Below are positions 4,936 through 62,300 of a stretch of DNA of 64,000 bases, piece by piece. How positions within the stretch are numbered: the first letter of the stretch is position 1; each line of letters opens with the position of its first letter. The translations under genes and the position numbers were made by a program. The notes below the pieces were generated by a model. It saw only the letters and a program-made list of their open reading frames with translations, searched no databases and had not been told where the DNA came from. Source of the stretch: Spirochaetia bacterium (GTDB taxonomy: Bacteria > Spirochaetota > Spirochaetia > UBA9216); NCBI GenBank assembly GCA_963675665.1, contig OY776510.1:139840-203839 (forward strand), read 5' to 3'.

Positions 4936-7101
4936 TCAGAATTTAAGCTTGCTTCCAAGCGTACTTTTTAATGTCTCCGCGGCATCTTCCGCGGCCTTTT
5001 CAACCTCATCGGGGACCGCATCCTGAAGCAATTTTTCCGCCTGTTTTGCGATATTGTCCTTTACCGACTGTTCAATTTCAGCAATTTTGTCATCAGCCAT
5101 CGATCTGTATTTATCGAGTTCCTGTTCATAATTTCTGATTTTATCAGCATAGGACTCAAACTGCTCCCTTGCCGAATCGAACTCCCGGAGCGGTTCTGCG
5201 AGCTCAGCGTCCAGATAATCCTTCAGCATCTGTAACCCCTCATCAGCGCCCTCTTTCAGCATGGCTGAAGCAGCATTGCCGAGGCTGTCATCCAGTTCGG
5301 TTTCAACCGAAATATCAAAACCGGTGCTATCGTTCCAGGTAAAACTGCCGATCGCCGTCAGGGGTTTTACCGATTCAAGGCTGGTGTTGACAAGCCTGTA
5401 TAAAAGTCCCTCCGGTTTTTCTGACTCGAGATTAAGCTCAACTGCTTCCAGACCGAAATCACCGGCAAATCCGTCTTCGTTCCACCCAAGGCCACTGTCA
5501 AGCGACAGCGAACCGGAAAATACGGAAATATCAAGCGCCGACAGGCTGCCGCCCAAATCAAACGGCACGGAAGGCACATCAAGCGTAAGGCTGCTCTCGG
5601 TAATCAGGGCTTCCGCGGCTCCTGTCGCCGGGGTATCTATCCCGATTTCGAGGCTGGTTTCGTTTTCCCATTTGTCCGGTTCGCTTACCAGATCATTTAA
5701 AGACAGGTTATAACTCAACCCTGGCTCTTCACCGGAAGCAAAAGCATGAACCAGAACAAAGCCCGGCGGGGCGTCTGCCGGAGGGGGAAGACTTCTGCCG
5801 GGCCTTCTTTTCTCCGGAGACTTTTCCTTTTTAAGATCTGAAAGACGTTTAAAACGTCCGTACCACTCAAGGCCGCGATCCAGGTACGACAGGTATTTCT
5901 GAAGCGGTGCGGACAGCTTTTCTTCAAGAATTGAAGCCGCCCAGTCAACCTTCTCACCGGCCGGCAATGTAACAAGACCTTCAATATAGTCATAATCGTT
6001 CGAGATTGCAGTCTTTATTGCATCAATCATTGATGAGGCTTCATTAATCCCGGCTTCAACGGCAGCCAAATCGTTTGCTGCGGATGAGTAATCCTGTTCC
6101 GCATCATTATATATCTTTTCAAGCTTTGAGATTGTGGACTGTGCGCTTTCAAGGGTCTGAAAGGAACCGGCGTTTACCGTTTTGATGTAATTAACGGAAG
6201 TCTCCCAGCCGTCAATCCTTGATTCCCATTCCCCGGCCTTGCCCTCCCACTGCCCTGCGTAGCCTTCAACTTTCATCTTTGAATCTTCAAGAACTGTAAA
6301 ACTTTCAAGGTTTTCCTTCTGCTGCGCAAGAATCTCTTCAACGTCGATTTCCCCGGCAATGGCCCCAAGCTGGTTGACAACATCCGTAATGGAATCCTTT
6401 CCGGCAGACACCAGTTTCCCGGCGGCCCCCTGCTTCTGATTTCCGGAAGACGCCTTGTCCGAATCTTCCGGTACAGCATCTCCGTCTTTGTCCGCAGGCG
6501 CTCCCGTTTCGGGAGCAGGAAGCAGCCCTGATTCGGCTCTTTCAGTGCCCCGCTTCAGTCCTGAAAACCCAAGCTCCTCTATAAGAACCCGGCCCTGAAG
6601 AAGTTCCGCCGTATCAAGATCAGCAGTAACCGATGAACATTCAAAAAGATTTTTCATAGGGTTCTGCGCGTCCGCTACAGCAAAGTATTCGAGCGAAAAT
6701 TCACCCTTGAAGATTGAAAGCTCAACGCCGTCCGTATCAACCTGTGCGAGAAATATCTTTTCAAGTTGAGTTTCCAGCAATCTCTGAACAAGCATATTCT
6801 TCAGATAGAATTCAAAGAAGACTATACCGCCTGCAACAATCACCAAGATAAAGATGAGTATGAAATTAAGACGCTTCCTGTTCTGTTTTATCGCTTTTCC
6901 GAGGGCTTTCAGTCGTTTCAGATCTTTTTTGGACAAACCCTCTGCATTCACCCTTACCATGCCGTTTTCTTCAACCAGCAGCGATTCAAGAAATTTCCGG
7001 TCCTCCGGCAGGTAAATTTTCTTTATATACTTTTTTTCCCATTTCTTCTTATCAACAGCCTTTGAAAATATTCCGGGCGCTTTCCTTTTTTTATCAGCCA
7101 T
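4936..7101 (-). CDS. Large membrane-anchored coiled-coil protein of unknown function
   Basis: 721 aa. It has a Lys-rich N-terminus, a single TM segment (LNFILIFILVIVAGGIVFF), then long acidic coiled-coil regions. It lies immediately downstream of the DUF2062 gene. Confidence 0.5.
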   Translation of the reverse strand: MADKKRKAPGIFSKAVDKKKWEKKYIKKIYLPEDRKFLESLLVEENGMVRVNAEGLSKKDLKRLKALGKAIKQNRKRLNFILIFILVIVAGGIVFFEFYLKNMLVQRLLETQLEKIFLAQVDTDGVELSIFKGEFSLEYFAVADAQNPMKNLFECSSVTADLDTAELLQGRVLIEELGFSGLKRGTERAESGLLPAPETGAPADKDGDAVPEDSDKASSGNQKQGAAGKLVSAGKDSITDVVNQLGAIAGEIDVEEILAQQKENLESFTVLEDSKMKVEGYAGQWEGKAGEWESRIDGWETSVNYIKTVNAGSFQTLESAQSTISKLEKIYNDAEQDYSSAANDLAAVEAGINEASSMIDAIKTAISNDYDYIEGLVTLPAGEKVDWAASILEEKLSAPLQKYLSYLDRGLEWYGRFKRLSDLKKEKSPEKRRPGRSLPPPADAPPGFVLVHAFASGEEPGLSYNLSLNDLVSEPDKWENETSLEIGIDTPATGAAEALITESSLTLDVPSVPFDLGGSLSALDISVFSGSLSLDSGLGWNEDGFAGDFGLEAVELNLESEKPEGLLYRLVNTSLESVKPLTAIGSFTWNDSTGFDISVETELDDSLGNAASAMLKEGADEGLQMLKDYLDAELAEPLREFDSAREQFESYADKIRNYEQELDKYRSMADDKIAEIEQSVKDNIAKQAEKLLQDAVPDEVEKAAEDAAETLKSTLGSKLKF

Positions 7102-46935: not shown

Positions 46936-49900
46936 TTAAAAGAGACCGATCCGGGCTCCGACGCTTGGAAGAAGCACTACTTCCGGGCTGACATCCGAGG
47001 AGATCAACCAAAGCTGCCCTTCCCAAAAAACCGAAATGTATTTTAAAAAACGCCTATCTTTAAAACTTATTTTGGGCAATTCAAATTGCCCGACAACTCC
47101 AGCAAGAACAACCCCCCAGCTGTCTTCCGAATCAACGGAATTACTGCTGAAATATGAAAAATTTGCGCCCAGCGCAGCTGTTGCGGACAATGCGGAAAAC
47201 TCGGGTCCGAAAAGCCAGGAAAATGGAACCTGCGCAAGGTTTGCAAGAAGCTTGGCCCCAAATACATTACCTCCAAAACGGGAGGCACGTTCATACCCCG
47301 TATCAGGATCAATCACGGTTTCTGGCGCATAACCGTACTGCATCTGAAGTTTTACGTTGTCATCCATAAAGGTCAGACCGAGCCCGGCTGTAAAATATGT
47401 AGCGCCAAGCGCCGAGGCGTCAAAGTACATGCCCTGAATAAAACTCGGCGTACTGTAATTATCCTTGTCACCATCACGAAGATTCAGCCATACGCCTGTT
47501 AATCCGCCGTCATCTGATGCGCTTCCTGATAAAAGCAAATTCCCGAACTGCCGGGAATTTTCCTCGGGGCTTAACAGATATAAATTCGGAGCTTTTGTAT
47601 CCATAACTACGCTGCATCGCGAGTATACCATGCTGTCTTCACCGGAAATTCTAACCGCCAGATTTAACTCTCCGTCGGGTACTTCTTCGCTGTATAAAGT
47701 GAATTCCCATTTCCCGTCTTTTATTCTCAATTTTCTGAAGGTTATGCCTCCGTCAAGGCTGAATTCCAGTTTGCCCGGCTGCAGTTTTTCAGGATCCTCC
47801 GGATCAGATTCAGCCTGTTCATAACCGGCGCTTCCTTCAATTGTAAAACGGTCGGTCACATACTGCTTTTCTGACAGATTGTCAAATGTTACCCACAGGC
47901 CGGTATCGGAATAATCAAGTTCGATACTTTCACTTTCAACTTCACTGCCATACTCGTCCGTCATAAGAGATAATCTGCCCCAACCTGCAGTATAATCATC
48001 ATCCTGCAGGACGTCACAGCGAAAAAATCCGGAGGAATCTACCTCAACCGTTTTAAACAGCCTGTCGTTTAATTTAAGATGTACCCTGGAAGCCTTGTCG
48101 GGCAAAAACCCCTGAACAGAAAATCTCGGCCCGACTGATTCCCCGGGCAGGGGCGCCAGAAGTTCAGGCGGCCTGATTCCCTCAGGCAACACTTCTATTA
48201 CCCTGCTTACAGTACCGGTATTATCTGCTGAATCTACAGCCTCCGCCCTGAAGCTGTAGAATCCGGGGGACAAACCATTAATATCAAGAGTCTCCCGGAT
48301 TGTCCCCCTTGAAGAAATATCTTTTACCGTTTCCATGCCGCTTTCTTTATCATCAAGGGGCGTCAGAATTGCGGTAAGGCTTTTTAAGCTGCTGTTGTCG
48401 AACACCCTTCCGCTCAGCTCAAGGCTGCCCCTGACAGCCTCGCCGTCGGAAGGTTTTGAAAAGGTTATTTCCGGAGAAGTATTGTCGGTGTTTATAAGAG
48501 TTGTAATCATGCTGCTTACCCCGGCATTATCTACAGCCCTGATAAGGATGGATGTTATTCCGTCGGACAGAAGGCTGGTATCCAGCGGATATGTCCACAG
48601 TTCAGTCCCCTCCGCCTTCTGGAAAGTGTTGCCGTTATCATGAGATATTAAAATCGCGGCAATCCCGTTTACATCGGAGGATACTCCTTCGAGTAATACG
48701 GAACCTTTTACAACCGAATCAAGATCCGGTTTGTTTATTTGTATGAAAGGGGGATCAAGAGATACGATAAATTTTCTTTCAACTTCTTCACTCTCAAGAC
48801 CGTTAAGATCAACAGCTTTGACCCTTACCGTATTAATATCATCTTGCAGTTCGGAAAGCTTCAACGGAACCGTGAAAAGGTTGCCGCTGCCGGCTTCAAG
48901 GTAAGCGCCGTCATTAAGACTGTAACTGACGGAAGCAACACCCTCCTGATCCAGTATCAAACCGGACAGCTCAAACCCTGTTTCCGTCGCACTCATTTCT
49001 TCGGGAACCTGAATGTCCACAACCGGCATACCCGCAGAAAAATCCAAATCAAGAAGAAGAGGCTGCTCAACTTTATTTCCTGCATTATCAACAGCTGAAA
49101 CAAGGACCTGCTCCGGATTAAACCCGAGAGAAGTAAGGTTGACATCAAGATAAAAAACATTTCCATCCTGTACTGCATCAAAAATAACAGGATCGGTTTC
49201 CTGTTTTATAAAGCTTATTTCTATCTTTGAACAGGAATCAATATCGTCCACTTTGCCTGATACGGTTATCTGTTCGGCCCCTTTACTGAACGACGATGTA
49301 ATAAAAGATAACGAAGGCGCTTTTGTATCCTTCAACAGCGGAATAGAAACAATTTCGGTATTACCAAAAATATCCCCGGCTTCAAGTATTACCGTAACTT
49401 CACCATCCTCTTGATGTAGTACCGAAACCTCAACCGGATCGCTGCCTGATAAATCGGTATAAGTTTTTCCCCCGTCGACAGAAAATTTCAGGAAACCGAG
49501 AGCGGTGTTATCTGAAGCTGCCGTATCAAGCAGAAAATGTTCGCCTATTATGCTGCCGGGAGACGGCTGAGTTATTTCTATAACCGGAGAAGTTCTGTCG
49601 GAAGCTATATTCATCGGTTTGGATATCAATTCTTTTCCGTTTTCAAGAGTTGCTGTCAAAATGATGTCTTCAGCTGCGCCTTCTTCGGAAGCTGTTATCC
49701 TGAACCCGTTTCCTGAAAAGGATACATCCAGAAATTCGCCGCCCGACAGATTCATACTTTTTATCCCGCCGCCGCCCGTCCATCCGCCTAAATAATCCCC
49801 TTCGCCCAATACAATATAATCGGACGCAGCAGATTCGGGATATACAAAATACAACCCTTCCGGATCAGACAGAGAGTTGTAATAAAAGGTTGTTTGCGCG

Positions 49901-51579
49901 CTGAATTTCGTTCCGGATCCGTCCTGTCCGGTAACGGAAATATCAATCCTGTCTTCACCGGCATATCTGGGAAGTTTGATATCAAAATACGCTTCGTCAG
50001 GATTATCACCGCTTTTTGGTACAAGCTTTTTTGGAGCGCTATTGTTGAAACTCCATTCCAGACCGGAAATTCCGGCGCCCCGGACAGTTCCTGCAAGTTT
50101 CGCCTGAATTTCTGAATCAATAACCATACCGGGAAACCATTTTTCATCCTGCTCGTCAATTGTCAACGAATCAAAGATGATTTCAGGAACCGGATATGCC
50201 GTTCTGATATTCCGGCGTATTGTTTCTCCGACCATGCCGAAACTGTCCACCGCACGAATTTCTATCCGGTTATCTCCGGCGACAACCTGGTCAAGCTGCA
50301 AACTCCATGGGCCTGAAACATCAACAGATTTCCAGTCCCCACCGTTAAGTGAGTACTCAATCTTTCCGGTAGAACCGTCGTCGTCTTTCATCATGCCGGT
50401 CAAAACCGGCATGATGCCGTATATCATTTCATCAACGCTATCGGACACGCCCGGGACAGGAAGGTCCGCTTCAAGATTCAGCGGGATTCGGAATTTCCCG
50501 GATATAACATTGCCGACAATATCAGTCAACAGCATATTGATCCGGGCTTCTTTCTTTTCTCCCGTTCCGTAATCGAGCGGAAGGACCCATACCGGGTTTC
50601 CCGGGCTTAACGAAATCTCGCCTGCAGTCCCGTTGTCAGCCTCGTAGCTTAGAGAAGATATTCCTACTTCATCATATGCCCGGCCTATTAGAACAATTCT
50701 GCCGTTTACAGATTTTTCAGCTTCCGGATAAATAAGCGTCAATTCCGGCGGCCGATTGTCTATATAAAAAAGAAACGACTGTTTTGAGCGTGAACCCAAA
50801 CCGTCTACTGCTTCCAGCCAGAAAACAAATGAACCGTCCTGATGCAACCGGGTGTCTATCTTCCTGGAAAATGTCCACTGCCCGTCCGTTGTCCCTTTGG
50901 AAAGTTTTATTTCATTATACGTCTTCCCGCCGTCTTCAGAGCATGATAATTTCTCAATACCGTTTAAATCTGTAACGGTTCCTTCCAGAGCTATCTTTCC
51001 TGTTACATAACTTCCGCCGGTATGGGAAATTATATCTATCACAGGTTTAACCGTATCTTTAAAAAAGGAAACACTTACAGACTCGCTCTCGTTTTGATCC
51101 TCATCCCAGGCCCTGGCTTTTATCGTATGTTCTCCATCGTCCCACGCGGAGCAGTCTATATTCATTCTCCAGAACGAAGTTCCTTCAGCAGGGCTGAATT
51201 CCCCCTCGTCCACCGCAATTTCCACGCGCTCGATTAGTTTATCATCTACGGCCGTGCCGAGAACATTAAGTGAATTTCCTGCCCGGCTCCCCCGGGAAGG
51301 CGTTGAAATTGAAACTTTGGGAATCTGAACAGAGGGATCAATATAAATATTATACGGCCCGCCCGAACCGGAGTTTCCGGCCTTATCAACTGCATGCAGC
51401 AGAATATTATACTCTCCCGGCGGAAGATCCGAAATATCAATACTGTGCTCCCAGTTATCAAGGCCCGAAACCGGTTGCGTTTCAGAATCATCAGCCTTCC
51501 CCATTGCCCACAGGCTGATTGAAAAGAATATAAATATTATTAAAAAACCCAGTCTGCTCCTGTAGTAATTAATCATCAA
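46936..51579 (-). CDS. Giant secreted surface protein with at least 7 Ig-like repeat domains and a C-terminal beta-barrel-like domain
   Basis: 1547 aa with a signal peptide (FFSISLWAMG). There are recurring modules of about 90 aa: P(P/S)x(I/L)x(I/F)xxPxxGxxVxGxxxLxGxxxD..GIxx(I/V)xxSxDxGxT(F/Y). The C-terminal roughly 250 aa alternate hydrophobic and polar residues and end ...GARIGLF. Confidence 0.6.
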   Translation of the reverse strand: MMINYYRSRLGFLIIFIFFSISLWAMGKADDSETQPVSGLDNWEHSIDISDLPPGEYNILLHAVDKAGNSGSGGPYNIYIDPSVQIPKVSISTPSRGSRAGNSLNVLGTAVDDKLIERVEIAVDEGEFSPAEGTSFWRMNIDCSAWDDGEHTIKARAWDEDQNESESVSVSFFKDTVKPVIDIISHTGGSYVTGKIALEGTVTDLNGIEKLSCSEDGGKTYNEIKLSKGTTDGQWTFSRKIDTRLHQDGSFVFWLEAVDGLGSRSKQSFLFYIDNRPPELTLIYPEAEKSVNGRIVLIGRAYDEVGISSLSYEADNGTAGEISLSPGNPVWVLPLDYGTGEKKEARINMLLTDIVGNVISGKFRIPLNLEADLPVPGVSDSVDEMIYGIMPVLTGMMKDDDGSTGKIEYSLNGGDWKSVDVSGPWSLQLDQVVAGDNRIEIRAVDSFGMVGETIRRNIRTAYPVPEIIFDSLTIDEQDEKWFPGMVIDSEIQAKLAGTVRGAGISGLEWSFNNSAPKKLVPKSGDNPDEAYFDIKLPRYAGEDRIDISVTGQDGSGTKFSAQTTFYYNSLSDPEGLYFVYPESAASDYIVLGEGDYLGGWTGGGGIKSMNLSGGEFLDVSFSGNGFRITASEEGAAEDIILTATLENGKELISKPMNIASDRTSPVIEITQPSPGSIIGEHFLLDTAASDNTALGFLKFSVDGGKTYTDLSGSDPVEVSVLHQEDGEVTVILEAGDIFGNTEIVSIPLLKDTKAPSLSFITSSFSKGAEQITVSGKVDDIDSCSKIEISFIKQETDPVIFDAVQDGNVFYLDVNLTSLGFNPEQVLVSAVDNAGNKVEQPLLLDLDFSAGMPVVDIQVPEEMSATETGFELSGLILDQEGVASVSYSLNDGAYLEAGSGNLFTVPLKLSELQDDINTVRVKAVDLNGLESEEVERKFIVSLDPPFIQINKPDLDSVVKGSVLLEGVSSDVNGIAAILISHDNGNTFQKAEGTELWTYPLDTSLLSDGITSILIRAVDNAGVSSMITTLINTDNTSPEITFSKPSDGEAVRGSLELSGRVFDNSSLKSLTAILTPLDDKESGMETVKDISSRGTIRETLDINGLSPGFYSFRAEAVDSADNTGTVSRVIEVLPEGIRPPELLAPLPGESVGPRFSVQGFLPDKASRVHLKLNDRLFKTVEVDSSGFFRCDVLQDDDYTAGWGRLSLMTDEYGSEVESESIELDYSDTGLWVTFDNLSEKQYVTDRFTIEGSAGYEQAESDPEDPEKLQPGKLEFSLDGGITFRKLRIKDGKWEFTLYSEEVPDGELNLAVRISGEDSMVYSRCSVVMDTKAPNLYLLSPEENSRQFGNLLLSGSASDDGGLTGVWLNLRDGDKDNYSTPSFIQGMYFDASALGATYFTAGLGLTFMDDNVKLQMQYGYAPETVIDPDTGYERASRFGGNVFGAKLLANLAQVPFSWLFGPEFSALSATAALGANFSYFSSNSVDSEDSWGVVLAGVVGQFELPKISFKDRRFLKYISVFWEGQLWLISSDVSPEVVLLPSVGARIGLF

Positions 51580-51591
51580 GATGTACTCCTT

Positions 51592-54500
51592 CTAATCGGT
51601 CAACTCATCAAGCAGCCTTACATACTCCAGTCCGTCGGCAGTATAGCCTACAACCGGCAGACCGGCGGAATCTACTCCCATATTAAATCTGTTTGAATCC
51701 GTATCCTGAATAAGGTTCGGAACAGTCTGAATCTCCCAGTTCCCTGTAAAAACATCAGACGTCACGCCGGGGCCTTCAGCGCCTGTATTCCAGGCCACCC
51801 TGGCGCTGTTGCCCAAACCTTTGTAAGCTATATAGGGAACTCCGGCTGAACTGACATCGATTGTAAGTTTTGAGCCTACAATCAGATAACTGTCGATAGT
51901 ATATACATCTACATCTGCGGCGGCACTGTTGTATGCCGGAATATACGCATATTTCACATCACCGTTATAACTGTCGTAATATGCAAGATGAATATGGTTG
52001 CTGCTGTCCACCTTAAGATCAATATATTCAGCATTAATAAAACTCTCTATGGTTATCGGGATCGACCAGGTACCGCTGTTGTCCGGGGTTTCATTATAGC
52101 TGAATACCAGCTGACCACTGCCGGTGGTATCCAGATAAGCCAGAACGGCTGTTGAACCGTCCGAAGTAGCCCCGACCGCTGAAAAACTTCCGGAAGAAGA
52201 TGATACATACTGTGCCCCCGGCGGCGTTGCCCCTGGCTGGGCGGATCCGGCGCTTGCGAAACGATTGTCGCCGCTATAATCCGGCCAGGCTCCTCCCCGA
52301 TCCTGCTGTTCGACATTGGTATAGAGTTCGGTGGAGCTGCCGGTATCATTCAGCATCCCTCCGGATGAATCGTCGATGGCATCTGATGTTCCGACAAGAA
52401 AATGCCTGAATATCAGCCGTTGCTCAAGATTGTCATAGACAGAATAGAAAACATCGGTAGATGCCGAATTACCGCTGACGGCAAGATCCGGGTACAGATA
52501 ACGGTTCAGCACTGCAGACGTTACAGGCACTGTTGTATCAACAAGATTCTCAAGCCATAGTCCGTTATCAATAAAATCATATGTAAAATCCGAATTACTG
52601 AGATCAGTATACGGCGGGGCTGTTGAATCATAAAAGAAATTTGTAAATATACCGCCGTAATTACCGGCATTGCTGTCTCCGAAATTACCATTAACTACGT
52701 TTACATCAACAAGGGCAGCGTGCTCTCCGTCGGTATTCAAATCAACCGCTGTAAAGGTGAAAAGGTCCCAGTTTGTCACTACATAATTATTTTCCGTATC
52801 ATCCAGGTAAAACGCCTGCCCGAAACCTTCCGAATTATTGACATATACAAAATGCGGGTCATCTCCGTCCATAACCATAGACGGGTAAACAGCATGATCA
52901 GCCGGAGTTATTGTCCGCCAAGGCCTTGTAATATTCCAGACGCTGATATACCTGTCATCAGAGAGAGCCTGATGCACATCCGAATCTTCCTTGTTATAGA
53001 CCTCATCATTATCATTTATATTATTGCCGGACGGGACACCGTCCACAATTACGGTAAGATTACCTGAACCGGCGGCATCAAGCTCAACGAGGAGTTGTTG
53101 ATCATTATCGCCCGCATCGCTATGAGCCAGAAGAGTCCCCGTCTGCGTAATACCGTCCTCATTCAGGGCATCGGGATCAACACTCAGCCGCACGGACGTC
53201 GAGCCGGCTGCGGAAGAATCGATATTCCATCCGTGAACCACAAGGGTTTCAAATGTCGACTGCGAACTTTCGGTTAATACCGGATATTTCCCTGATGCTG
53301 ATCGGGCAAAAGTATCTGAAAATGCAGACGACAGCATTGTCTCGATCTTTGAAATATAAGGCACAACATCATATGTACGGGTAACGGAGTCGGTTCTTCC
53401 GGCTGAATCGGTTACAATAAACTCAACCGTTGTTCCCAACCCGGTCGGCAGCGCGGAAGAATCCCAGTTGTAGATCCAGTTCGCCCGGTGAAGTATAACA
53501 CCGGAATCTTCAACAAACCCCGATCCGCTTTCAAGCGGTGTATTGTCGGCGGTATATTCCAGCCTGTCGTCAACCTCATCCCATTGGGCAAAGACAACAG
53601 CTGCCGTTCCATTAATACTGACGGCCAGCGATTCTATCTGTTGATTATCTTCCGCCTGCCCCGAGAAAGGGGCCGTTCCACTGATAGATATACTTCCGCC
53701 CATTTCAATGTGTCCCTCACCGGAAGTTTTTACATTAATAGCATCAGCTGAAGTTAATTCGTAAAAATCCATATCCGGGTCTGCAATATCAGTATTTTCA
53801 ACGGTAACAGTCAGAGTGAGAGTCTCTTCATACCCCTTGGGATCGGTTACGGAAAACTCAATCTCATAATCGCCGTCTCCGTCGGCAAAAACATCTGTTG
53901 ATGAAGTATCCAGGGTACCTGTTGAAGAGACTGAACCCAAATCAGTCCAGCTGCCGGCGGGAAGGGGCCGGATCCGTATACCGTATGTTTCAGCTCCGTT
54001 TGCCCCGTCATATACAATATTAAACTGATAATCAAGGTCACCGAAAACAGTGTTGTTTTCGGTGCTGTCCGTTCCGTATGTTCTGATTTCTCCCGCTTCG
54101 ATATAAGAGTCATGATCATAATCCCAGCCGGCTTCAACAGAGGTTATTTCAGGCGCATGATTCTTGATATTGCCGCCTGTTACAGTTTCCGTGAAAGAAT
54201 TCCCTGAGTTATCGAAGATCCCGTAAAGAACTTCAAGTGTTCCGTCATCAAATGATGTCGAATCAAATTTCGCCCACCATGTCCAGGTAGAACCGGAAAT
54301 TGCCATTGATTCGTTAAATCCGTCGTCGTCACCATTGCTTGAACCATCATTGCCGACTTCGGTGCGGGAATCGATAACAATCGGAGTTCGTATCCCTTTG
54401 GAATTAAGCGGGTTTACAGGGGTTCCGTCAAGTTCAAATGTAACTTCTATGCGATCAATTCCGGAAACAGTCCCGGTATCAACTGCAGTCCCCTGTACAA

Positions 54501-57021
54501 GAGCCGTTCCTGAAAGGTCGGTCACCCCGGCAGTATATGTCCCTGAAGGCAAAAGATTGTCTATATTAAGATTAATTCCCGTAAGCGTTTTGTAATCGGC
54601 GGTATCGAGAGCTTCAAGTCTTAAATAAAGTATCCCCGAACTGCCGATAATATCATCGGAATCAATTGAATGAGAAAAATAATATGTCGCTCCAAGGTTG
54701 TTTCCGATAGTAGTCCAGTCAACTCCGCCGTTATAACTTATCCTCAGTCTTTTAACTGAATCATCGTCGTTGACATATCCGGTAAGATTAAAGGTCCCTT
54801 TTTCGTAATCTCCCGACGCATGACTTAAATCGCTGAAATATGGAACTGTATCATCAAAAGTAACCTGTACGGTTTCAATATTCCCGGCGAGATCAGGCAC
54901 TCCGTCTTTCTGGTCTACTGCCCGCACATCAATTTTTACTGTTCCGTTATGATCTATACCGTTCGGATAAAATTCTCCGTCCGCATTCAGTTCAACCTGC
55001 CAGGTTCCTGTTCCGCTTATCTCATACCACGAATCGTCGCCGTATACATCATCAAGACCGAGCAATGCGTCAAGCTCAAAAAGTTCGGTAAAAACACTTC
55101 CTCCGGCAGAGTCCTCTCCTTTCCAGATTCTAAGTTCAATATGATCCAGCGCCTCGTCCAACTCGTTTTTGTCATCCCAGGCACTTCCCGAAAGCATTAC
55201 AGAACCGGCAAGAATTGCTCCATCCGATGGTGATGCAATATTTATTCCGGGACGGTCAAGACTGTTGTCTATATAAATTCGGTGTTCCGCAAGTGTAATA
55301 TTATCCGCCTTGTCTGTTGCTTCCGCCCAGATCTTCAGCTCCCAGATACCTGTGCCTGATTCAGGCAATCCCGAACCGTTCACCTCTACGGCCATACTGG
55401 TGTTCTCATAATCAGAACTGACTATACTCCGCTGCCAACTGTAAAATTCCGAAGGCGAAAGAACTTCTGCTGCCGCGGGTGCCCAGGCCAGGCCGCCTAT
55501 CTGAAGTTTTACCTGCTTAAGAGACCAGTTATCTGAAGAAACTCCCTGAAGAGTTGTTGTTCCGTTTATAAAAAGATCCGCTGCAGGCGAAAGGAATTCA
55601 ACCGAGGGAGCTGAAATATCTACAAAAACCTGCATACTGTAATGAGAGGTTTTCCCTGAATTGTCAATTGCATCAACTCTGATATCTACAGCTCCGGCTG
55701 CAGCATCTTCCACGTCATGGCTCCAGCTTATACTCTCTCCGGGAACAATGGAAACTTCTTCATATTCATTGTTATTAATGCTGATTTCAATGCTTTGAAT
55801 AGCTCCGCCTGTATCCTCGGCAGTTCCGGTAATCGTAAAATTGCCTGAAGAAAGATAAGCGCCCTGAGCCGGCGAATCAACATTTACAGACGGAGCCGTT
55901 TTATCGATTGTAAACGGGACCACTGAGGAATAGCCGGTAAGCGAAGCATCCCCCGCTGATTTGCCGGTATCTGCAGCTTTTACCTGTAAAGCATAAATTC
56001 CGTTATCAAGAGAAGAAAGATCATAACTCCAGCGGACAAAACCGCCGCTTCCGTTAAGCTGTTCTCCGCTTAGAGACTGCCAGGAACTTCCGCCGTCCGT
56101 GCTCAACTCAACCGAATCAACATCCACTTCATCATCATCTTCTATATAACCTACCGCTACCGAAGTACCGCCCATGATATTGTCTTCCGCACTTCCGCCC
56201 TCTTCAGGATTGCTGATTACGACCCTTGGTTCATCAAGACTCAGATCAACTTCAACTTCCTGCTCAGTCATCCTTAAAGGAGCCAGGTTCTGGGTTCCCA
56301 GTTTGCCGCTGAGCTCTGCAGCCGCAATGTCTTCAATCTTTGCATCAGAGGTAAAATCCGAGGAATGATAAAGCCAGCTGTTTGAATTTCCGGCCGAGTC
56401 ATAAGCTTTAATCCTTACAGAGTAGGTTCCGGTGCCGATGGTATTAAGAACAAAGCTCCATCCGTTTGTACCCTGAAAGGATGAAACTGTTGCAGAACCG
56501 GTGACTACTGTTGCTTCAAGATGATCTATACGGCTGAAAAGATAATCATATGCTTCACCCCGGATTACCGGAGAATTCGTTGAAGCGCCCGAGGTAATAC
56601 CCTCGCTGCTTGTAACCAAAACAGTAGGCGGCGTATTATCAAAATAAAGCAGAAGTCTTTTTTCGGTTTCACGTCCTGAGGAGTCGGTTATATACAGGAT
56701 TATTGTATATTCTCCGTCATCGTATAATGACGTATCCAGGGCCAGCGACCAAAGGGTTATTTCTCCCTGCAGCAGTTCTGCATCGAAAACCTCTGTTCCA
56801 AGCACCATTCGAACAGATTCAATTTTAACATCATCAGTTGAAGTTCCGTTAAGAACAATTTTTCCGCGTACGTAATCACCGTTTTCATAGGTATCAATTA
56901 CACCGGTCGGGTTTTCTATATCGGCGGCAGGGCCAAGACCCAAAATTGGATTTTTACATCCTGAAGTAAAAACTGCCGTAATTAGTAACGTTAAAACAAG
57001 TAAATATATTATTTTTTTCAT
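51592..57021 (-). CDS. Giant surface lipoprotein with multiple Ig-like repeat domains and a C-terminal beta-propeller-like repeat region
   Basis: 1809 aa with a lipobox (AVFTSGC). It repeats the same Ig-like module as the downstream gene (e.g. KTAPSVNVDSPAQGAYLSSGNFTITGTAEDTGG..., ISAPSVEFLSPAADLFINGTTTLQGVSSD...). The C-terminal blades read NHIHLAYYD / VPYIAYKGLG / LPVVGYTADG. Confidence 0.6.
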   Translation of the reverse strand: MKKIIYLLVLTLLITAVFTSGCKNPILGLGPAADIENPTGVIDTYENGDYVRGKIVLNGTSTDDVKIESVRMVLGTEVFDAELLQGEITLWSLALDTSLYDDGEYTIILYITDSSGRETEKRLLLYFDNTPPTVLVTSSEGITSGASTNSPVIRGEAYDYLFSRIDHLEATVVTGSATVSSFQGTNGWSFVLNTIGTGTYSVRIKAYDSAGNSNSWLYHSSDFTSDAKIEDIAAAELSGKLGTQNLAPLRMTEQEVEVDLSLDEPRVVISNPEEGGSAEDNIMGGTSVAVGYIEDDDEVDVDSVELSTDGGSSWQSLSGEQLNGSGGFVRWSYDLSSLDNGIYALQVKAADTGKSAGDASLTGYSSVVPFTIDKTAPSVNVDSPAQGAYLSSGNFTITGTAEDTGGAIQSIEISINNNEYEEVSIVPGESISWSHDVEDAAAGAVDIRVDAIDNSGKTSHYSMQVFVDISAPSVEFLSPAADLFINGTTTLQGVSSDNWSLKQVKLQIGGLAWAPAAAEVLSPSEFYSWQRSIVSSDYENTSMAVEVNGSGLPESGTGIWELKIWAEATDKADNITLAEHRIYIDNSLDRPGINIASPSDGAILAGSVMLSGSAWDDKNELDEALDHIELRIWKGEDSAGGSVFTELFELDALLGLDDVYGDDSWYEISGTGTWQVELNADGEFYPNGIDHNGTVKIDVRAVDQKDGVPDLAGNIETVQVTFDDTVPYFSDLSHASGDYEKGTFNLTGYVNDDDSVKRLRISYNGGVDWTTIGNNLGATYYFSHSIDSDDIIGSSGILYLRLEALDTADYKTLTGINLNIDNLLPSGTYTAGVTDLSGTALVQGTAVDTGTVSGIDRIEVTFELDGTPVNPLNSKGIRTPIVIDSRTEVGNDGSSNGDDDGFNESMAISGSTWTWWAKFDSTSFDDGTLEVLYGIFDNSGNSFTETVTGGNIKNHAPEITSVEAGWDYDHDSYIEAGEIRTYGTDSTENNTVFGDLDYQFNIVYDGANGAETYGIRIRPLPAGSWTDLGSVSSTGTLDTSSTDVFADGDGDYEIEFSVTDPKGYEETLTLTVTVENTDIADPDMDFYELTSADAINVKTSGEGHIEMGGSISISGTAPFSGQAEDNQQIESLAVSINGTAAVVFAQWDEVDDRLEYTADNTPLESGSGFVEDSGVILHRANWIYNWDSSALPTGLGTTVEFIVTDSAGRTDSVTRTYDVVPYISKIETMLSSAFSDTFARSASGKYPVLTESSQSTFETLVVHGWNIDSSAAGSTSVRLSVDPDALNEDGITQTGTLLAHSDAGDNDQQLLVELDAAGSGNLTVIVDGVPSGNNINDNDEVYNKEDSDVHQALSDDRYISVWNITRPWRTITPADHAVYPSMVMDGDDPHFVYVNNSEGFGQAFYLDDTENNYVVTNWDLFTFTAVDLNTDGEHAALVDVNVVNGNFGDSNAGNYGGIFTNFFYDSTAPPYTDLSNSDFTYDFIDNGLWLENLVDTTVPVTSAVLNRYLYPDLAVSGNSASTDVFYSVYDNLEQRLIFRHFLVGTSDAIDDSSGGMLNDTGSSTELYTNVEQQDRGGAWPDYSGDNRFASAGSAQPGATPPGAQYVSSSSGSFSAVGATSDGSTAVLAYLDTTGSGQLVFSYNETPDNSGTWSIPITIESFINAEYIDLKVDSSNHIHLAYYDSYNGDVKYAYIPAYNSAAADVDVYTIDSYLIVGSKLTIDVSSAGVPYIAYKGLGNSARVAWNTGAEGPGVTSDVFTGNWEIQTVPNLIQDTDSNRFNMGVDSAGLPVVGYTADGLEYVRLLDELTD

Positions 57022-57203: not shown

Positions 57204-58949
57204 CTATTCCTTGTTCTCTATCTTCTCATTTATCATTGACAGAAAATCGGCAAAAGGTACGCCGTTTGTCTGTTTCCCGGTGCGCAGCCTGACGGAAACA
57301 GCTCCTTCCAGTTCTTCCTTTTCGCCGATAATCAGCATATACGGAATCTTCTGGTTCTGGGCGTTTCGTATCTTTGCATTCATCCTTGAATCGGAAAGGT
57401 CCGCATCAACCCTGATTCCTTCAGCCTTAAGGTCCGCCGCCACTTTTTTGGCATAGTCGTCAAAGGCTGAGGCAACCGGGATCACACTGACCTGTACCGG
57501 CGAGAGCCAGACAGGAAAGGCGCCGCCGAAATGCTCGATAAGAACACCGAAAAACCTTTCTATTGAACCCAGCAGGGCACGATGAACCACGTACGGCTGC
57601 TTTTCCTTTCCGTCGTGATCAACAAAAGTCATTTTAAACCGCTCGGGCAGGTTAAAATCAAACTGTATTGTCGAAAGCTGCCAGTCGCGGCCCATGGCGT
57701 CTTTAACCTTGAGATCAATCTTGGGACCGTAGAACGCCCCGCCGCCCTCGTCAACATCGTAATCGAGCCCCTGTGCCTCAATGGCCTTTCGCAGCGATTC
57801 GGTTGCCGCATCCCACTTTTCCGGAGCGCCCACGCTCTTGTCTCCCAGCGGCATTGTAGAGAGATATGCCTTGAATTCGGAAAAACCGAATGATCGCAGC
57901 ATAAACAGCGAAAACCGAAGGGTCTCGGCAATTTCGTTCTCCATTTGCTCCGGAGTACATATTATATGCGCATCATCCTGGGTGAATCCCCGGACACGCA
58001 TAAGCCCGTGAAGAACTCCGGATTTTTCATAGCGGTAAACCGTTCCCAGCTCGGCCCACCGGCATGGAAGCTCGCGATATGAACGCTTTGAGTTGTTGTA
58101 AATCATAATATGAAAAGGACAGTTCATCGGCTTTGCGTAATAGTCGCTGGCATCCATTTCCATCGAGTTGAACATTCCTTCCTTGTAAAAATCAAGGTGT
58201 CCGGAAGTTTCCCACAGCCAGGACTTGCCGACATGGGGTGTATAAACCATCTCGTAACCGTTTTTGTAGTGTTCTTTTCTCCAGAAATCCTCGATGGCAA
58301 GTCTTATTCTGGCGCCTTTTGGGTGCCAGTAAACAAGCCCCGGACCGGCATCTTCATGCAAGCTGAACAGATCAAGCTCTCTGCCCAGTTTGCGGTGATC
58401 GCGCTTTTCCATTTCTTCAAGGTGCTGCAAATGCATACGCAGGTCTTTGGGATTGGTCCAGGCGGTTCCGTAAATTCGTTGCAGCATAGGGCGGCTCTCG
58501 TCGCCGCGCCAGTACGCGCCTGCAATACTCAACAGTTTAAATGACTGCGGGTTAAGCTTTCCCGTATTTTCCACATGCGGGCCTCGGCAGAGATCGGTAA
58601 ACCCGCCCTGGTTATAGGTTGTGATAACCTCGTTTTCGGGCAGTTCATTGATGAGCTCAATCTTATAAGGCTGATCCTTGAACATTTCAAGGGCCTCGGT
58701 TTTGGTAACCTCTTTTCTGATGAAATCCTTGCCGGCTTTCATGATCCCGCGCATACCGTCGCTGATTTCTTCCAGATCTTCCGGCGTCAATGATCTGGGC
58801 AGTTCAAAGTCATAGTAAAAACCGTTTTCAATCGAAGGCCCGATTGCAATCTTTGCCTCCGGGAATTTCTCAAGAACAGCCTCCGCCATGATATGCGCGG
58901 TAGAATGCCTGATCAAATCAAGTTTTCCCTGTTTCTCGTCGTTTTTCAT
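57204..58949 (-). CDS. thrS: Threonyl-tRNA synthetase (short form lacking the N-terminal TGS domain)
   Basis: 581 aa. It is collinear with E. coli ThrRS from the N2 editing domain onward (LIRHSTAHIMAEAV..., MNCPFH, RVRGFTQDDAHI, anticodon-binding C-terminus). It starts right after the region where the TGS domain would be. Confidence 0.85.
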   Translation of the reverse strand: MKNDEKQGKLDLIRHSTAHIMAEAVLEKFPEAKIAIGPSIENGFYYDFELPRSLTPEDLEEISDGMRGIMKAGKDFIRKEVTKTEALEMFKDQPYKIELINELPENEVITTYNQGGFTDLCRGPHVENTGKLNPQSFKLLSIAGAYWRGDESRPMLQRIYGTAWTNPKDLRMHLQHLEEMEKRDHRKLGRELDLFSLHEDAGPGLVYWHPKGARIRLAIEDFWRKEHYKNGYEMVYTPHVGKSWLWETSGHLDFYKEGMFNSMEMDASDYYAKPMNCPFHIMIYNNSKRSYRELPCRWAELGTVYRYEKSGVLHGLMRVRGFTQDDAHIICTPEQMENEIAETLRFSLFMLRSFGFSEFKAYLSTMPLGDKSVGAPEKWDAATESLRKAIEAQGLDYDVDEGGGAFYGPKIDLKVKDAMGRDWQLSTIQFDFNLPERFKMTFVDHDGKEKQPYVVHRALLGSIERFFGVLIEHFGGAFPVWLSPVQVSVIPVASAFDDYAKKVAADLKAEGIRVDADLSDSRMNAKIRNAQNQKIPYMLIIGEKEELEGAVSVRLRTGKQTNGVPFADFLSMINEKIENKE

Positions 58950-59312
58950 ATTTATCTCCTACAGGCAGGATTACCCGGACATAAAAAAACCCTTATACCT
59001 GCCGTCCTTACATTATTGTAAGGACGAAAAGCATAAGAGCTCTAAAAAGCCCCGCTTTCCGCGGTCCCACCTTACTTCGAAAAACTAAAGTGAGGCGTAG
59101 CCGAACTTTAGTTTTCGCACTCTCAGAGTTTACGCCTTCAGGGCGGCCTGAATTACTGGAAACATTCGAAGGATGACAGCATCCTGAGAATGTCTCGTTC
59201 CGACAGGCAGCTCGGGAGTGGTTTTCACAGGGTATCGGTCCACATCTTCCAGCCGCAGGATGCGTTCTCTGTTCACCGGAAAGCCCTCTTACTCGTCTCC
59301 GTCAATGCTGTT
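58950..59312 (-). promoter_or_regulatory. T-box riboswitch-like leader of thrS
   Basis: On the minus strand, AAGGUGGGACCGCGG (the reverse complement of 59059..59073) matches the T-box consensus AGGGUGGNACCGCGG. A 13-bp hairpin precedes it. An antiterminator can be drawn as GUAAGG[UGGGACC]GCGGAAAG...CUUUUCGUCCUUAC. The competing downstream hairpin CGUCCUUACA-auaau-UGUAAGGACG uses the same 5' arm. AGAGA lies near the 5' end. A candidate ACC specifier sits in GAAAACCAC. Confidence 0.55.
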
Positions 59313-59315
59313 GTT

Positions 59316-59348
59316 TATAATATGCTCATTTGAAACAAATCTGTCAAG
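59316..59348 (-). promoter_or_regulatory. Sigma70-like promoter for the thrS leader
   Basis: On the minus strand, TTGACA is followed by a 17-19 nt spacer and CATATTATAA. Confidence 0.45.
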
Positions 59349-59407
59349 ATGATCTTCTTCAGCTTATATTCTTCAGCGAAGCCCCGCAAGACAACAGGGG
59401 TTGATTA

Positions 59408-60292
59408 TCAGTTGATTTCGGAAGTCAGTTCAACGGATATAAAATGTATATCAACAGGTTCTTCATTAAAATCCGTCCAGCTGTCGGTTAGTCTCTCGAC
59501 ACCCAGATACAATGCGGCCCTGCCTGTTTCTCCTGAAACGGCGATCCCTCCGCGCAGGCTGCAGTCGATTCCCAGGGGCGCCAGACCTGTTACCAAAGTG
59601 TCTTCCGTTCGTTGTGTAAGTGAAACGGAACCGTCGGCCAATACGGCCAGCTGCGGTTCCGATAAAAACTCGCCGCAAATCCTGAAAAATCCCGCGGCAT
59701 GCCGCAAATCCGGCTGGGGCGGAGCTTCCTGAAAAACCGCGGGCAGGTTGATTCCTCCCTCAACCGCCATGTTTGCGGTTAAAAGAAACCGTCCGGCATC
59801 AACAAGTTTAAAATCGTCCCCTGGTCTGACGGCAAGGAACAGGAGATCATGAATCTGCAGCCGGACGGAACGCCGGTCAACCTCATGTTTGCAGTCGTGC
59901 TGAAACCCGGATTCAATTAGTACAGGGTTCAGATTGATGTACATTAAAAGACGTAAATCGGAAATAATCGAGCCTGCATTGAATATCCATTCACTTAAAG
60001 GTTCGGGCGCCGCGGAGAAATGAAAAGTTTCTTCGGCAAGCCCTGAAACTGCAAAAAAACTGCTCGAGAATATGTTGATATTAACTCCGCATTTCCAGTC
60101 ATGGCCGAAATCCGGAACCTGCTGCTGATTAAGAACATGCCGGAAAGAAACCCAGCTGCCTGCTCCCGTCATTACCCCGGGGGTTTCGGAAAAAACAGGG
60201 GTATAAAAGATTTGAGGAGTTTTTACTACCTGGGCAAAGAGGGGGATAGCCATAAGCAGTAATAAAAATGATATGTATGTTTTCTTTCTCAT
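59408..60292 (-). CDS. Secreted/outer-membrane-associated protein, unknown function
   Basis: 294 aa with a signal peptide (FLLLLMAIPLFAQ). It has amphipathic beta-like segments and no recognisable catalytic motif. Confidence 0.4.
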   Translation of the reverse strand: MRKKTYISFLLLLMAIPLFAQVVKTPQIFYTPVFSETPGVMTGAGSWVSFRHVLNQQQVPDFGHDWKCGVNINIFSSSFFAVSGLAEETFHFSAAPEPLSEWIFNAGSIISDLRLLMYINLNPVLIESGFQHDCKHEVDRRSVRLQIHDLLFLAVRPGDDFKLVDAGRFLLTANMAVEGGINLPAVFQEAPPQPDLRHAAGFFRICGEFLSEPQLAVLADGSVSLTQRTEDTLVTGLAPLGIDCSLRGGIAVSGETGRAALYLGVERLTDSWTDFNEEPVDIHFISVELTSEIN

Positions 60293-60365: not shown

Positions 60366-61391
60366 ATGTACAGTTTTAAAAATGATTACTCCGACGGTGC
60401 ACATCCGGCAATACTGAAAGCGCTTGCCGAATCAAACGATGTTCAAACGGAAGGCTACGGCGAAGACAGGTTCAGCCTTGAAGCGACAAACCTGTTAAAG
60501 CGTAAAATCGGCAGGAAAGATGTTGATGTTCATTTTATAACCGGAGGGACTCTTACAAACCAGGTCGCAATATCAGCTTTTCTGAAGCCGCATGAGGCGG
60601 TGATTTCAGCAAAATCAGGGCACATCTACGTTCATGAAACCGGAGCAATTGAAACAACCGGGCACAAGGTTATCCCGGTAGAGTCTTCGGACGGCAAGCT
60701 TTATCCAAAACAGATTGTGGATGTAGTTACGGAACATCATTTTGAGCATATGGTTAAACCCAGGCTTGTATATATTTCACAGCCCACGGAAACAGGAACC
60801 CTTTACTCCAGGACGGAACTTGAAGAACTTTGGAAATTATGCGGCAAACTCAACCTTCTGTTATACATCGACGGTGCAAGACTGGCTTCGGCAATTGCTT
60901 CCCGAAAAAGCGATACAACCTTACCCGATTATGCAAATCTGTGCGACTCTTTTTACATCGGAGGAACAAAAAACGGAGCCCTTTTCGGAGAGGCTCTTGT
61001 AATATGCAACGATCATCTTAAAAAAGATTTCAGATATCACCTGAAACAGAAGGGGGCTCTCTCGGCAAAAGGAAGGGTTCTGGGAATCCAGTTTCTGACG
61101 CTTTTCACTGATGATCTATATCTGAAGCTTGCAGCCCATTCAAATAAAATGGCCGAAAAACTGCAAAGCGGGATAGAATCGGCGGGTTTTAAAATGCTGT
61201 TTCATTCATATACCAATCAGATTTTTCCAATCATGCCGGAAGAGGTTATTGCCGGGCTTGAAAAGAAATATCTTTTTTACCGCTGGGAAAAAACAGCAGA
61301 CGGCAGCCCGACTATCAGGCTTGTATGCTCATGGTCTACGGAAGAAAAATACATAGACGACTTTATCAAATCCTGTTCGGAATTCTCATAA
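60366..61391 (+). CDS. ltaE: Low-specificity threonine aldolase (PLP, beta-eliminating lyase fold)
   Basis: The N-terminus FKNDYSDGAHPAILKAL, together with the HETGAIE and YIGGTKNG(A) regions, matches threonine aldolase/Beta_elim_lyase. The product is 341 aa. Confidence 0.75.
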   Translation: MYSFKNDYSDGAHPAILKALAESNDVQTEGYGEDRFSLEATNLLKRKIGRKDVDVHFITGGTLTNQVAISAFLKPHEAVISAKSGHIYVHETGAIETTGHKVIPVESSDGKLYPKQIVDVVTEHHFEHMVKPRLVYISQPTETGTLYSRTELEELWKLCGKLNLLLYIDGARLASAIASRKSDTTLPDYANLCDSFYIGGTKNGALFGEALVICNDHLKKDFRYHLKQKGALSAKGRVLGIQFLTLFTDDLYLKLAAHSNKMAEKLQSGIESAGFKMLFHSYTNQIFPIMPEEVIAGLEKKYLFYRWEKTADGSPTIRLVCSWSTEEKYIDDFIKSCSEFS

Positions 61392-61469: not shown

Positions 61470-62300
61470 TTACTTCATTACATCACAGTCTGCGGTAAAC
61501 TCCTGATTGACCCCGTATTCCCAGGGTTTATTGGGAGTTTCAGTTACATCGAAATATTTGAAACCTTCTTCATAATCGATGAGCTTTACATCCATGCCTT
61601 CATCTTCCGCTTTTTCCATAAAACTGCTTATTGAACTTTTAATGTTGTCTTCAAGCCCCTTTCCGGGTTTAACTACAAGCATCGAAGTATCCTTTCGTAG
61701 TTCATCATTCCAGGGCATCGTACCATAAAGAAAAACACCTGTATTCAGACAGTCCGAAAACGGGCAATCCTCGCCGATGAAGGCCCTCAAAACATCAGGG
61801 CAGCACCCGCAATAGCCGACCATTCCAAGATTATCAGCTTGTATACAGAGTTCGTCAGTTCTGTTGACGAGATCGGTTATAAGCAGCTCCAGATCTTTGT
61901 CCGGATACGTAGGGTCATAGGTTACGGCAATCATTCCGTGTGCAGCAACAAGCGCCCCCCAGTCAATATGCCTGCCTGTATTCTTGGCTTTCAACCCGGC
62001 AAATCCATTATAAATCACAACTGCCGGAAGCTTGCTGTCAAACGAGAAACCTGGCGGATAATAAATATCCATAAATTTATCCTGTGCATAACGGTCATTA
62101 ACTTTAACCTGCACAAGATCCATCTGCGGTACCGTGTAAACTGTGCTTGCAACATTCAGCAACAGCTCCTTCTCTTTCTGGCTTCGCCTTTTTGCTCCCG
62201 AAATTAAAGCTGTACCCGAATCGTCCCCGCTGCAGGCCTGTAAAACAAGTATTGATATCATAACCAGGCCAAACAGTTTTTCTTTTTTCAAGATTTTCAT
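61470..62300 (-). CDS. Lipoprotein, unknown function
   Basis: It has a lipobox (LVLQACSG). The product is 276 aa with no clear catalytic motif. Confidence 0.45.
   Translation of the reverse strand: MKILKKEKLFGLVMISILVLQACSGDDSGTALISGAKRRSQKEKELLLNVASTVYTVPQMDLVQVKVNDRYAQDKFMDIYYPPGFSFDSKLPAVVIYNGFAGLKAKNTGRHIDWGALVAAHGMIAVTYDPTYPDKDLELLITDLVNRTDELCIQADNLGMVGYCGCCPDVLRAFIGEDCPFSDCLNTGVFLYGTMPWNDELRKDTSMLVVKPGKGLEDNIKSSISSFMEKAEDEGMDVKLIDYEEGFKYFDVTETPNKPWEYGVNQEFTADCDVMK

Follow-up and report, generated by a model that had tools for sequence, protein, structure and literature searches.

Background

The closest described counterparts of the leader analyzed here are those of the Bacillus subtilis thrS and thrZ genes, which belong to the T-box family (Rfam RF00230) and are of the transcriptional type (class I). 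The translational T-boxes (class II) of actinobacterial ileS genes share the tRNA-sensing principle and the UGGN bulge with the transcriptional ones, but their stem I is truncated and the Shine-Dalgarno (SD) sequence is covered by a sequestrator. The published surveys consulted confine T-boxes to Firmicutes, Actinobacteria, Chloroflexi, Deinococcus-Thermus and a few deltaproteobacteria (PMC2494555, PMC3766115). In particular, Wels et al. (2008) detected T-boxes in none of six Spirochaetes genomes (PMC2494555), and the TBDB preprint describes the same distribution, with horizontal gene transfer (HGT) to other phyla (10.1101/2020.06.17.157016). No report of a spirochaete T-box was retrieved by a search of the literature; a mention might be found in other major surveys, and Rfam or RefSeq records for genomes such as that of Rectinema subterraneum may well exist already.

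Here we describe a leader encoded on the minus strand of the window, i.e., the whole 64,000-nt stretch of spirochaete DNA that was analyzed. We hold with high confidence that this leader is a threonine-specific transcriptional T-box located ahead of a thrS gene whose product, threonyl-tRNA synthetase (ThrRS), lacks the TGS domain.

Results

The approximately 400 nt between thrS and the stop codon of the preceding gene (59408) contain the T-box sequence. A scan of positions 58900..59450 (551 nt) at an E-value threshold identifies a match to RF00230 at 59314..59017 on the minus strand, which covers model positions 1-219 with a score of 83.6 bits (E = 1.1e-18); when the entire window is scanned with Rfam at the default gathering thresholds, nothing is reported. 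The score is below the curated gathering score of RF00230, which is 93, and is probably lowered by long insertions relative to the Rfam model: the stem II loop is extended by 34 nt and stem III by about 20 nt, and the antiterminator loop has 27 nt instead of 3. In the RF00230 alignment, every conserved model position is aligned in the window leader, which has every defining structural feature of a class I T-box. The leader is still assigned to RF00230, the gathering cut-off being an operational score threshold and not a matter of T-box biology.

The first-pass annotation of this DNA had reported a T-box consensus on the minus strand about 120 nt before the thrS ATG and had proposed a check against the RF00230 covariance model. 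The consensus is indeed found, as AAGGUGGGACCGCGG at 59073..59059, within a conserved T-box sequence that extends over 59077..59059 of the minus strand; its core, GGTGGGACCGCG (59071..59060, minus strand), is located 122 nt before the ATG, and the covariance model match is full-length although it remains under the gathering score. By itself, the 12-nt core does not reach significance: 0.92 chance matches are expected in the window when one mismatch is allowed; the T-box assignment is based on the covariance model, covariation, and conservation in orthologous loci, and not on this core.

A promoter-like site (59319..59347, minus strand), consisting of TTGACA (59347..59342), a 17-nt spacer and CATATT (59324..59319), with 10 of 12 matches, ends about 5 nt 5' of the start of the T-box match. 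TTGACA is present at an equal distance from stem I in the related loci L001, L002, L003, L017, L032, L014, L022, L039, and L045-L049. Stem I (59209..59309, minus strand), as delineated by the Rfam alignment and RNAalifold, carries a GA/K-turn motif at its base, where UGA...GAG is aligned to the model consensus. It contains the AGAGA bulge (59270..59266, minus strand) and the distal loop CUGCGGCUGGAAG (59258..59246, minus strand); AGAGA and GGCUGGAAG, the elements of the tRNA-elbow platform, are aligned to the RF00230 consensus. In the specifier loop, the 5' strand is ACGAGUA, with an AGUA S-turn, and the 3' strand is GAAAACCA; the specifier triplet ACC (Thr; 59220..59222, minus strand), followed by A, is at the 3' end of the loop. 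Stem II (59146..59208, minus strand) has the base helix GCCUG/CAGGC and an internal loop with GAA...AGUA, and its distal hairpin is longer by the 34-nt insertion than that of the Rfam model. The stem IIA/B element CGCCCUGAAGGCGUAA (59130..59145, minus strand) is supported by both the Rfam alignment and the fold, and stem III (59078..59120, minus strand), where about 20 nt are inserted, is a stem of approximately 15 bp. Thus, the AGAGA near the 5' end, the long stem III-like hairpin and the ACC triplet, all noted in the first-pass annotation, are present. The SD sequence AGGAG (58956..58960, minus strand) is separated from the ATG by 6 nt and from the upstream U-run of the terminator by 22 nt, and thus lies outside the switch.

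The antiterminator (59018..59075, minus strand; -24.6 kcal/mol) is formed by helix A1, GUAAGG/CCUUAC, and helix A2, GCGGAAAGC/GCUUUUCGU, which flank the 7-nt bulge UGGGACC (59069..59063, minus strand); the enlarged 27-nt loop contains a small hairpin. The intrinsic terminator (58983..59040, minus strand) comprises a 23-bp hairpin (59040..58989) with a 12-bp lower stem, an 11-bp upper stem and an AUAA loop, and a U7 run (58989..58983) that directly abuts the hairpin. With a folding energy of -30.5 kcal/mol (z = -8.97), the terminator is more stable than the antiterminator. The 5' arm of the terminator takes up nucleotides of both the loop and the 3' arm of the antiterminator, so that 23 nt (59040..59018) are common to the two structures, which are mutually exclusive.

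The antiterminator folds as it had been drawn before, with GUAAGG, the UGGGACC bulge and GCGGAAAG facing CUUUUCGU-CCUUAC. The competing hairpin of the earlier drawing is mutually exclusive with the antiterminator, as claimed, but its length of 10 bp has to be replaced by the 11 + 12 bp found by folding. The accompanying claim that the U-run lies 12 nt past the hairpin falls with it: this 12-nt stretch, AGGUAUAAGGGU, is base-paired to GCUCUUAUGCUU in the antiterminator loop and 3' arm and makes up the 3' strand of the lower stem.

Just 5' of the SD sequence, at 58965..58975, there is a CUGCC motif whose complement, GGCAG(G), is part of the terminator 3' arm; this arm, once freed in the read-through state, could pair with the motif. 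An equivalent of the motif is present in L003, L004, L005, L017 and L032 (the longer form CCUGCC is found in the window, L004, L005 and L017), and it is missing from L001 and L002.

The relatives of the window were collected by scanning one genome per species for ThrRS; 296 relatives were found and the best 80 were taken. Ranks 1-52 belong almost exclusively to Spirochaetota (Spirochaetaceae, 'Thalassospirochaeta', Oceanispirochaeta, Sediminispirochaeta, Treponemataceae and Rectinemataceae), with 62-92% ThrRS identity, and ranks 53-80 are Anaerolineae (Chloroflexota), with 60-63% identity; there are no Firmicutes among the best 80 of the 296. The first-pass annotation had read the T-box as a taxonomic hint, T-boxes being characteristic of Firmicutes and a few other phyla, but the ThrRS (up to 92% identity) and the neighboring genes match metagenome-assembled genomes (MAGs) of Spirochaetota, which indicates that the window is spirochaetal.

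Of the 80 loci, 60 have a single copy of the core GGTGGNACCRCG, which is on the same strand as thrS and 64-414 nt 5' of this gene, and 6 further loci contain it with one mismatch (UGGUAAC or UGGAAUC), which brings the T-box core to 66 of the 80; in the rest, 3 loci have no upstream sequence and about 10 truly have no T-box. The RF00230 gathering score is reached in 6 of the 19 loci scanned. These are L001 (98.0 bits) and L017 (94.6 bits), the nearest relatives of the window; L014 (95.3 bits); L039 (94.9 bits), from the cultured isolate Rectinema subterraneum; and L056 (101.3 bits) and L066 (98.3 bits), from Anaerolineae. Among the spirochaete leaders, 4 of the 16 scanned are at or above the Rfam threshold.

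Covariation was analyzed in two alignments, one of the expression platform from 18 spirochaete leaders (alignment A1) and one of stem I from 20 spirochaete leaders (alignment A2). For stem I, RNAalifold recovers four helices unaided (the one at the base, GGAG/CUCC, the one above the specifier loop, and the distal one), with compensatory changes in 12 of the 18 pairs; AGAGA, GGCUGGAAG and UGA...GAG are invariant or nearly so, and the flanking helices covary. In alignment A1, 95.9% of the antiterminator cells are paired, compared to 47-56% in a control in which the partners are slid by 1-3 columns, and 7 of the 15 pairs show two-sided changes. For the terminator, the respective values are 88.9% and 42-54%, with two-sided changes in 15 of the 23 pairs. 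Most of these changes are in the lower stem, which comparatively is the best-supported part of the structure (e.g., column pair 61/123 is CG in 8 leaders, UA in 6, UG in 2 and GC in 1, and column pair 67/117 is CG in 5, GC in 5, UA in 3 and UG in 3). Because the terminator and the antiterminator each covary, both mutually exclusive structures are under selection, as is characteristic of a switch.

At the N of UGGN, the window, L001 and L002 have G; L003-L007, L017 and nearly all Anaerolineae have A; L032, L014, L019, L022 and most of the Rectinema-like group (L039, L045-L047) have U; and one group of Treponemataceae has C. This base thus differs (G, A or U) among the window, L001-L005, L017 and L032, even though the ThrRS of these relatives is about 85-92% identical to that of the window. 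Both A and G at this position would be able to pair with a U73 discriminator. No tRNA genes were found in the window and no tRNA-Thr genes in 60 related loci.

Two further observations were made in the loci of the related genomes. The spirochaete thrS orthologs of L028, L030, L031, L035 and L036, which have no T-box core, are preceded by an alternative conserved leader (130-200 nt upstream) of the form ...GAGCACAACA...CUCC...GGAGA.GCCUU.GUA...GAAGGC-UUUUUUAUUAUCCGGAGGUAAAUG, with a hairpin and a U-run immediately before the SD sequence; it may represent another kind of thrS attenuator. In L053, an Anaerolineaceae MAG, a group II intron (5470..5754; RF02001, 123.7 bits, and RF01998, 49.6 bits) is located about 700 nt downstream of thrS.

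The gene downstream of the leader, thrS (57204..58949, minus strand, with the ATG at 58949), encodes a 581-aa threonine--tRNA ligase as identified by TIGR00418 and Pfam. The thrS equivalog model TIGR00418 matches this ORF with 737 bits against a cut-off of 384. The Pfam matches are to tRNA_SAD, tRNA-synt_2b and HGTP_anticodon only, that is, to the N2 editing domain, the class II core and the anticodon-binding domain; there is no Pfam match for the TGS (N1) domain. Residue 9 of the protein is aligned with residue 69 of the Staphylococcus aureus ThrRS (1NYQ) and residue 67 of the E. coli ThrRS (1QF6), so that the N-terminal N1/TGS domain of about 60 aa is missing, and the N2 editing domain, with the HSTAH and CRGPH motifs, is kept. 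A longer ORF is impossible because the T-box fills the sequence immediately 5' of the ATG; the start point is the same in all 80 orthologs, with in-frame stops just upstream.

The absence of the TGS domain, which had been noticed already in the first-pass annotation, is therefore borne out by Pfam and by the alignments but is not peculiar to this locus. As judged from the lengths and alignment offsets of cluster representatives, about 40 of the 150 best representatives of 50%-identity ThrRS clusters (about a quarter) begin no more than 37 residues from the start point of the window protein, and most of these are 570-620 aa long. A literature search on TGS-less ThrRS retrieved nothing specific. 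The TGS-less form is thus a clade-wide and common architecture with no special tie to the T-box leader.

The 294-aa ORF 5' of the leader (59408..60292, minus strand) has no Pfam or NCBIfam match and is found at the same position in L032, with 51% identity. Beyond this gene, about 1.1 kb upstream of the thrS leader and divergent to thrS, there is a gene for a PLP-dependent Beta_elim_lyase/threonine-aldolase-like protein (60366..61391, plus strand), which scores 65 bits with the model for low-specificity L-threonine aldolase (cut-off 312) and is also present upstream of thrS in L017 (15..1022; 68% identity). The proximity of a threonine-related gene is suggestive, yet the gene is not downstream of the T-box. 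Still further, a 276-aa ORF (61470..62300, minus strand) has no Pfam or NCBIfam match. On the other side, thrS is directly followed by an 1809-aa ORF (51592..57021, minus strand) and then by a 1547-aa ORF (46936..51579, minus strand). The 1809-aa protein shows a weak match (E = 4e-8, below the cut-off) to the OmpL47-type beta-barrel surface-protein domain of Leptospira, and this similarity is consistent with a spirochaete surface protein.

Discussion

Mechanistically, the leader is a textbook T-box that introduces no new principle; the unusual part is the host phylum. By analogy with the established T-box mechanism, we infer the transcription start and stop points, tRNA binding and the response to charging as follows. 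Transcription would begin just 3' of the TTGACA-17-CATATT promoter, and the nascent stem I would fold, with the specifier ACC pairing with the anticodon of tRNA-Thr and the platform formed by the AG bulge and the distal loop stacking on the tRNA elbow. In the case of an uncharged tRNA, the 3' NCCA end would pair with UGGG in the 7-nt bulge and stabilize the antiterminator (59075..59018), so that RNA polymerase would continue into thrS. With a charged tRNA, the more stable 23-bp terminator (59040..58989) followed by U7 would form, and transcription would end about 35 nt before the start codon.

Several alternatives to a functional threonine-specific T-box that acts at termination have to be considered. 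That the leader merely resembles a T-box by chance, or is a decayed relic that has lost any regulatory role, could be argued from the Rfam score below the gathering threshold, from the expectation of about 0.9 occurrences of the 12-nt core per window by chance with one mismatch allowed, and from the absence of Spirochaetes among the T-box-bearing phyla in published surveys (PMC2494555, PMC3766115). Such a reading is highly improbable in the face of an E-value of 1e-18 over the full RF00230 model, a leader whose position is conserved in 66 of 80 orthologous loci, compensatory changes that preserve stem I, the antiterminator and the terminator, an invariant ACC specifier, and orthologous leaders that exceed the gathering score. 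The identity of the specifier itself deserves scrutiny given that ambiguity of the specifier frame is a known problem of T-box annotation (PMC7778990), and here the G of the window's UGGG comes without a matched discriminator base. A frame shifted by one base in either direction within ...GAAAACCAC... would make the T-box read AAC (Asn) or CCA (Pro). However, the 32 extracted stem I sequences of spirochaetes have ACC without exception, and the base that precedes it varies (A, G or U), which breaks AAC, as does the base that follows it (A, C or G), which breaks CCA; furthermore, the regulated gene is thrS, which speaks against reading of either tRNA-Asn or tRNA-Pro. The Anaerolineae leaders, with the specifier loop GAAAACC(A/C), include ACC as well. 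The frames AAC and CCA were accordingly discarded, invariance being limited to ACC, and a shift of frame retains next to no chance of being correct. The threonine specifier suggested by the first-pass annotation is thereby upheld: ACC is a Thr codon, the regulated gene is thrS, and the triplet is expected from its sequence to pair with the GGU anticodon of tRNA-Thr.

The remaining alternative concerns the read-out of this threonine-specific leader. In a translational (class II-like) or dual T-box, a sequestrator would hide the ribosome-binding site, and control would be exerted at the initiation of translation, as the first-pass annotation had envisaged on the basis of its mis-drawn terminator. 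Some properties of the window sequence fit such a scheme: a weak hairpin past the U-run pairs GGA of the SD sequence with UCC, and in constrained folding, performed with either the terminator or the antiterminator forced for the window and 17 relatives, the probability of the SD core of the window being unpaired is about 0.2 in the former case and about 0.63 in the latter. In addition, the long GC-rich hairpins past the antiterminator in a number of GC-rich Treponemataceae and Rectinemataceae leaders (L025-L029, L034, L037, L041-L043 and L052) are not followed by a U-run of at least 5 nt. Against this, the supposed 12-nt gap is occupied by one strand of the covarying 12-bp lower stem, with U7 abutting the hairpin, and the SD sequence, 22 nt beyond the U-run, is outside the switch helices. 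In the 17 relatives, the difference in SD accessibility between the two states has no consistent sign, the accessibility being mostly high in both, and stem I, which is complete and bears a distal platform, differs from its truncated counterpart in actinobacterial translational T-boxes (PMC7778990). Translational control as the main mechanism was rejected given the lack of a conserved effect on the SD sequence in the 17 relatives, and we consider it very unlikely; folding suggests that a minor translational contribution may exist in the window sequence alone. The reading preferred here, transcription termination, relies on a terminator hairpin with a U-run that is mutually exclusive with the antiterminator, as in class I T-boxes, and on the immediate succession of a hairpin and U5 or a longer U-run in 44 of 61 leaders. 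The terminators in the clade of the window are long (-30 to -35 kcal/mol) and those of Anaerolineae are short and canonical. As modeled from these structures, the conserved read-out appears to be transcription termination.

The GC-rich leaders of Treponemataceae and Rectinemataceae that have no U-run might use another read-out, be it translational, Rho-dependent or other; this does not concern the window leader.

A threonine T-box is conserved ahead of thrS in the cultured Rectinema subterraneum as well as in dozens of MAGs of spirochaetes. Routine annotation will under-report spirochaete T-boxes because only 4 of the 16 spirochaete leaders scanned pass the Rfam threshold and that of the window itself is below it. 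The link of the T-box with TGS-less ThrRS in both Spirochaetota and Anaerolineae provides a test case for horizontal spread together with genes for aminoacyl-tRNA synthetases. Tentatively, and with more doubt than conviction, we propose that these leaders represent an undescribed phylum-level extension of the T-box to Spirochaetota, shared with Anaerolineae along with the TGS-less ThrRS, in which pairing with the discriminator base is possibly relaxed, given that the UGGN base varies (G, A or U) among ThrRS orthologs of about 90% identity. If true, this would imply either an ancient transfer of the gene together with its riboswitch between phyla or an ancestral distribution of T-boxes wider than is now assumed.

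Comparison with known systems

With the B. subtilis thrS and thrZ leaders, the window leader shares the regulated gene, the overall architecture and the Thr specifier ACC. The common elements are stem I with the K-turn, the specifier loop, the AG bulge and the distal loop; stem II, the stem IIA/B element, stem III, the UGGN bulge, and the competing antiterminator and terminator with a U-run. The differences are the host, which belongs to Spirochaetota and not to Firmicutes; stems II and III, which are enlarged by insertions of 34 and about 20 nt, respectively; the 27-nt antiterminator loop, which contains a hairpin and is partly recruited into an unusually long 23-bp terminator; the score below the Rfam gathering threshold; and the ThrRS without TGS.

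The thrS leaders of Anaerolineae (e.g., Leptolinea tardivitalis, L066, and Leptolinea sp. HRD-7, L075) resemble that of the window in their association with a TGS-less ThrRS, the closest one outside the spirochaetes (60-63% identity), in the GAAAACC(A/C) specifier loop, in the thrS-proximal position, and in the terminator with a U-tract. Unlike the window leader, they are compact, with a short canonical antiterminator loop and terminators of -10 to -20 kcal/mol; 64-130 nt separate the core from the start codon; the core reads CUGGGUGGAACCGCG, in which N is nearly always A; and both leaders that were scanned (L056 and L066) are above the Rfam threshold. The actinobacterial ileS T-boxes, with their truncated stem I and the sequestrator over the SD sequence, differ from the window leader, which combines the same tRNA-sensing principle with a full-length stem I, a terminator with a U-run, and an SD sequence that lies outside the switch.
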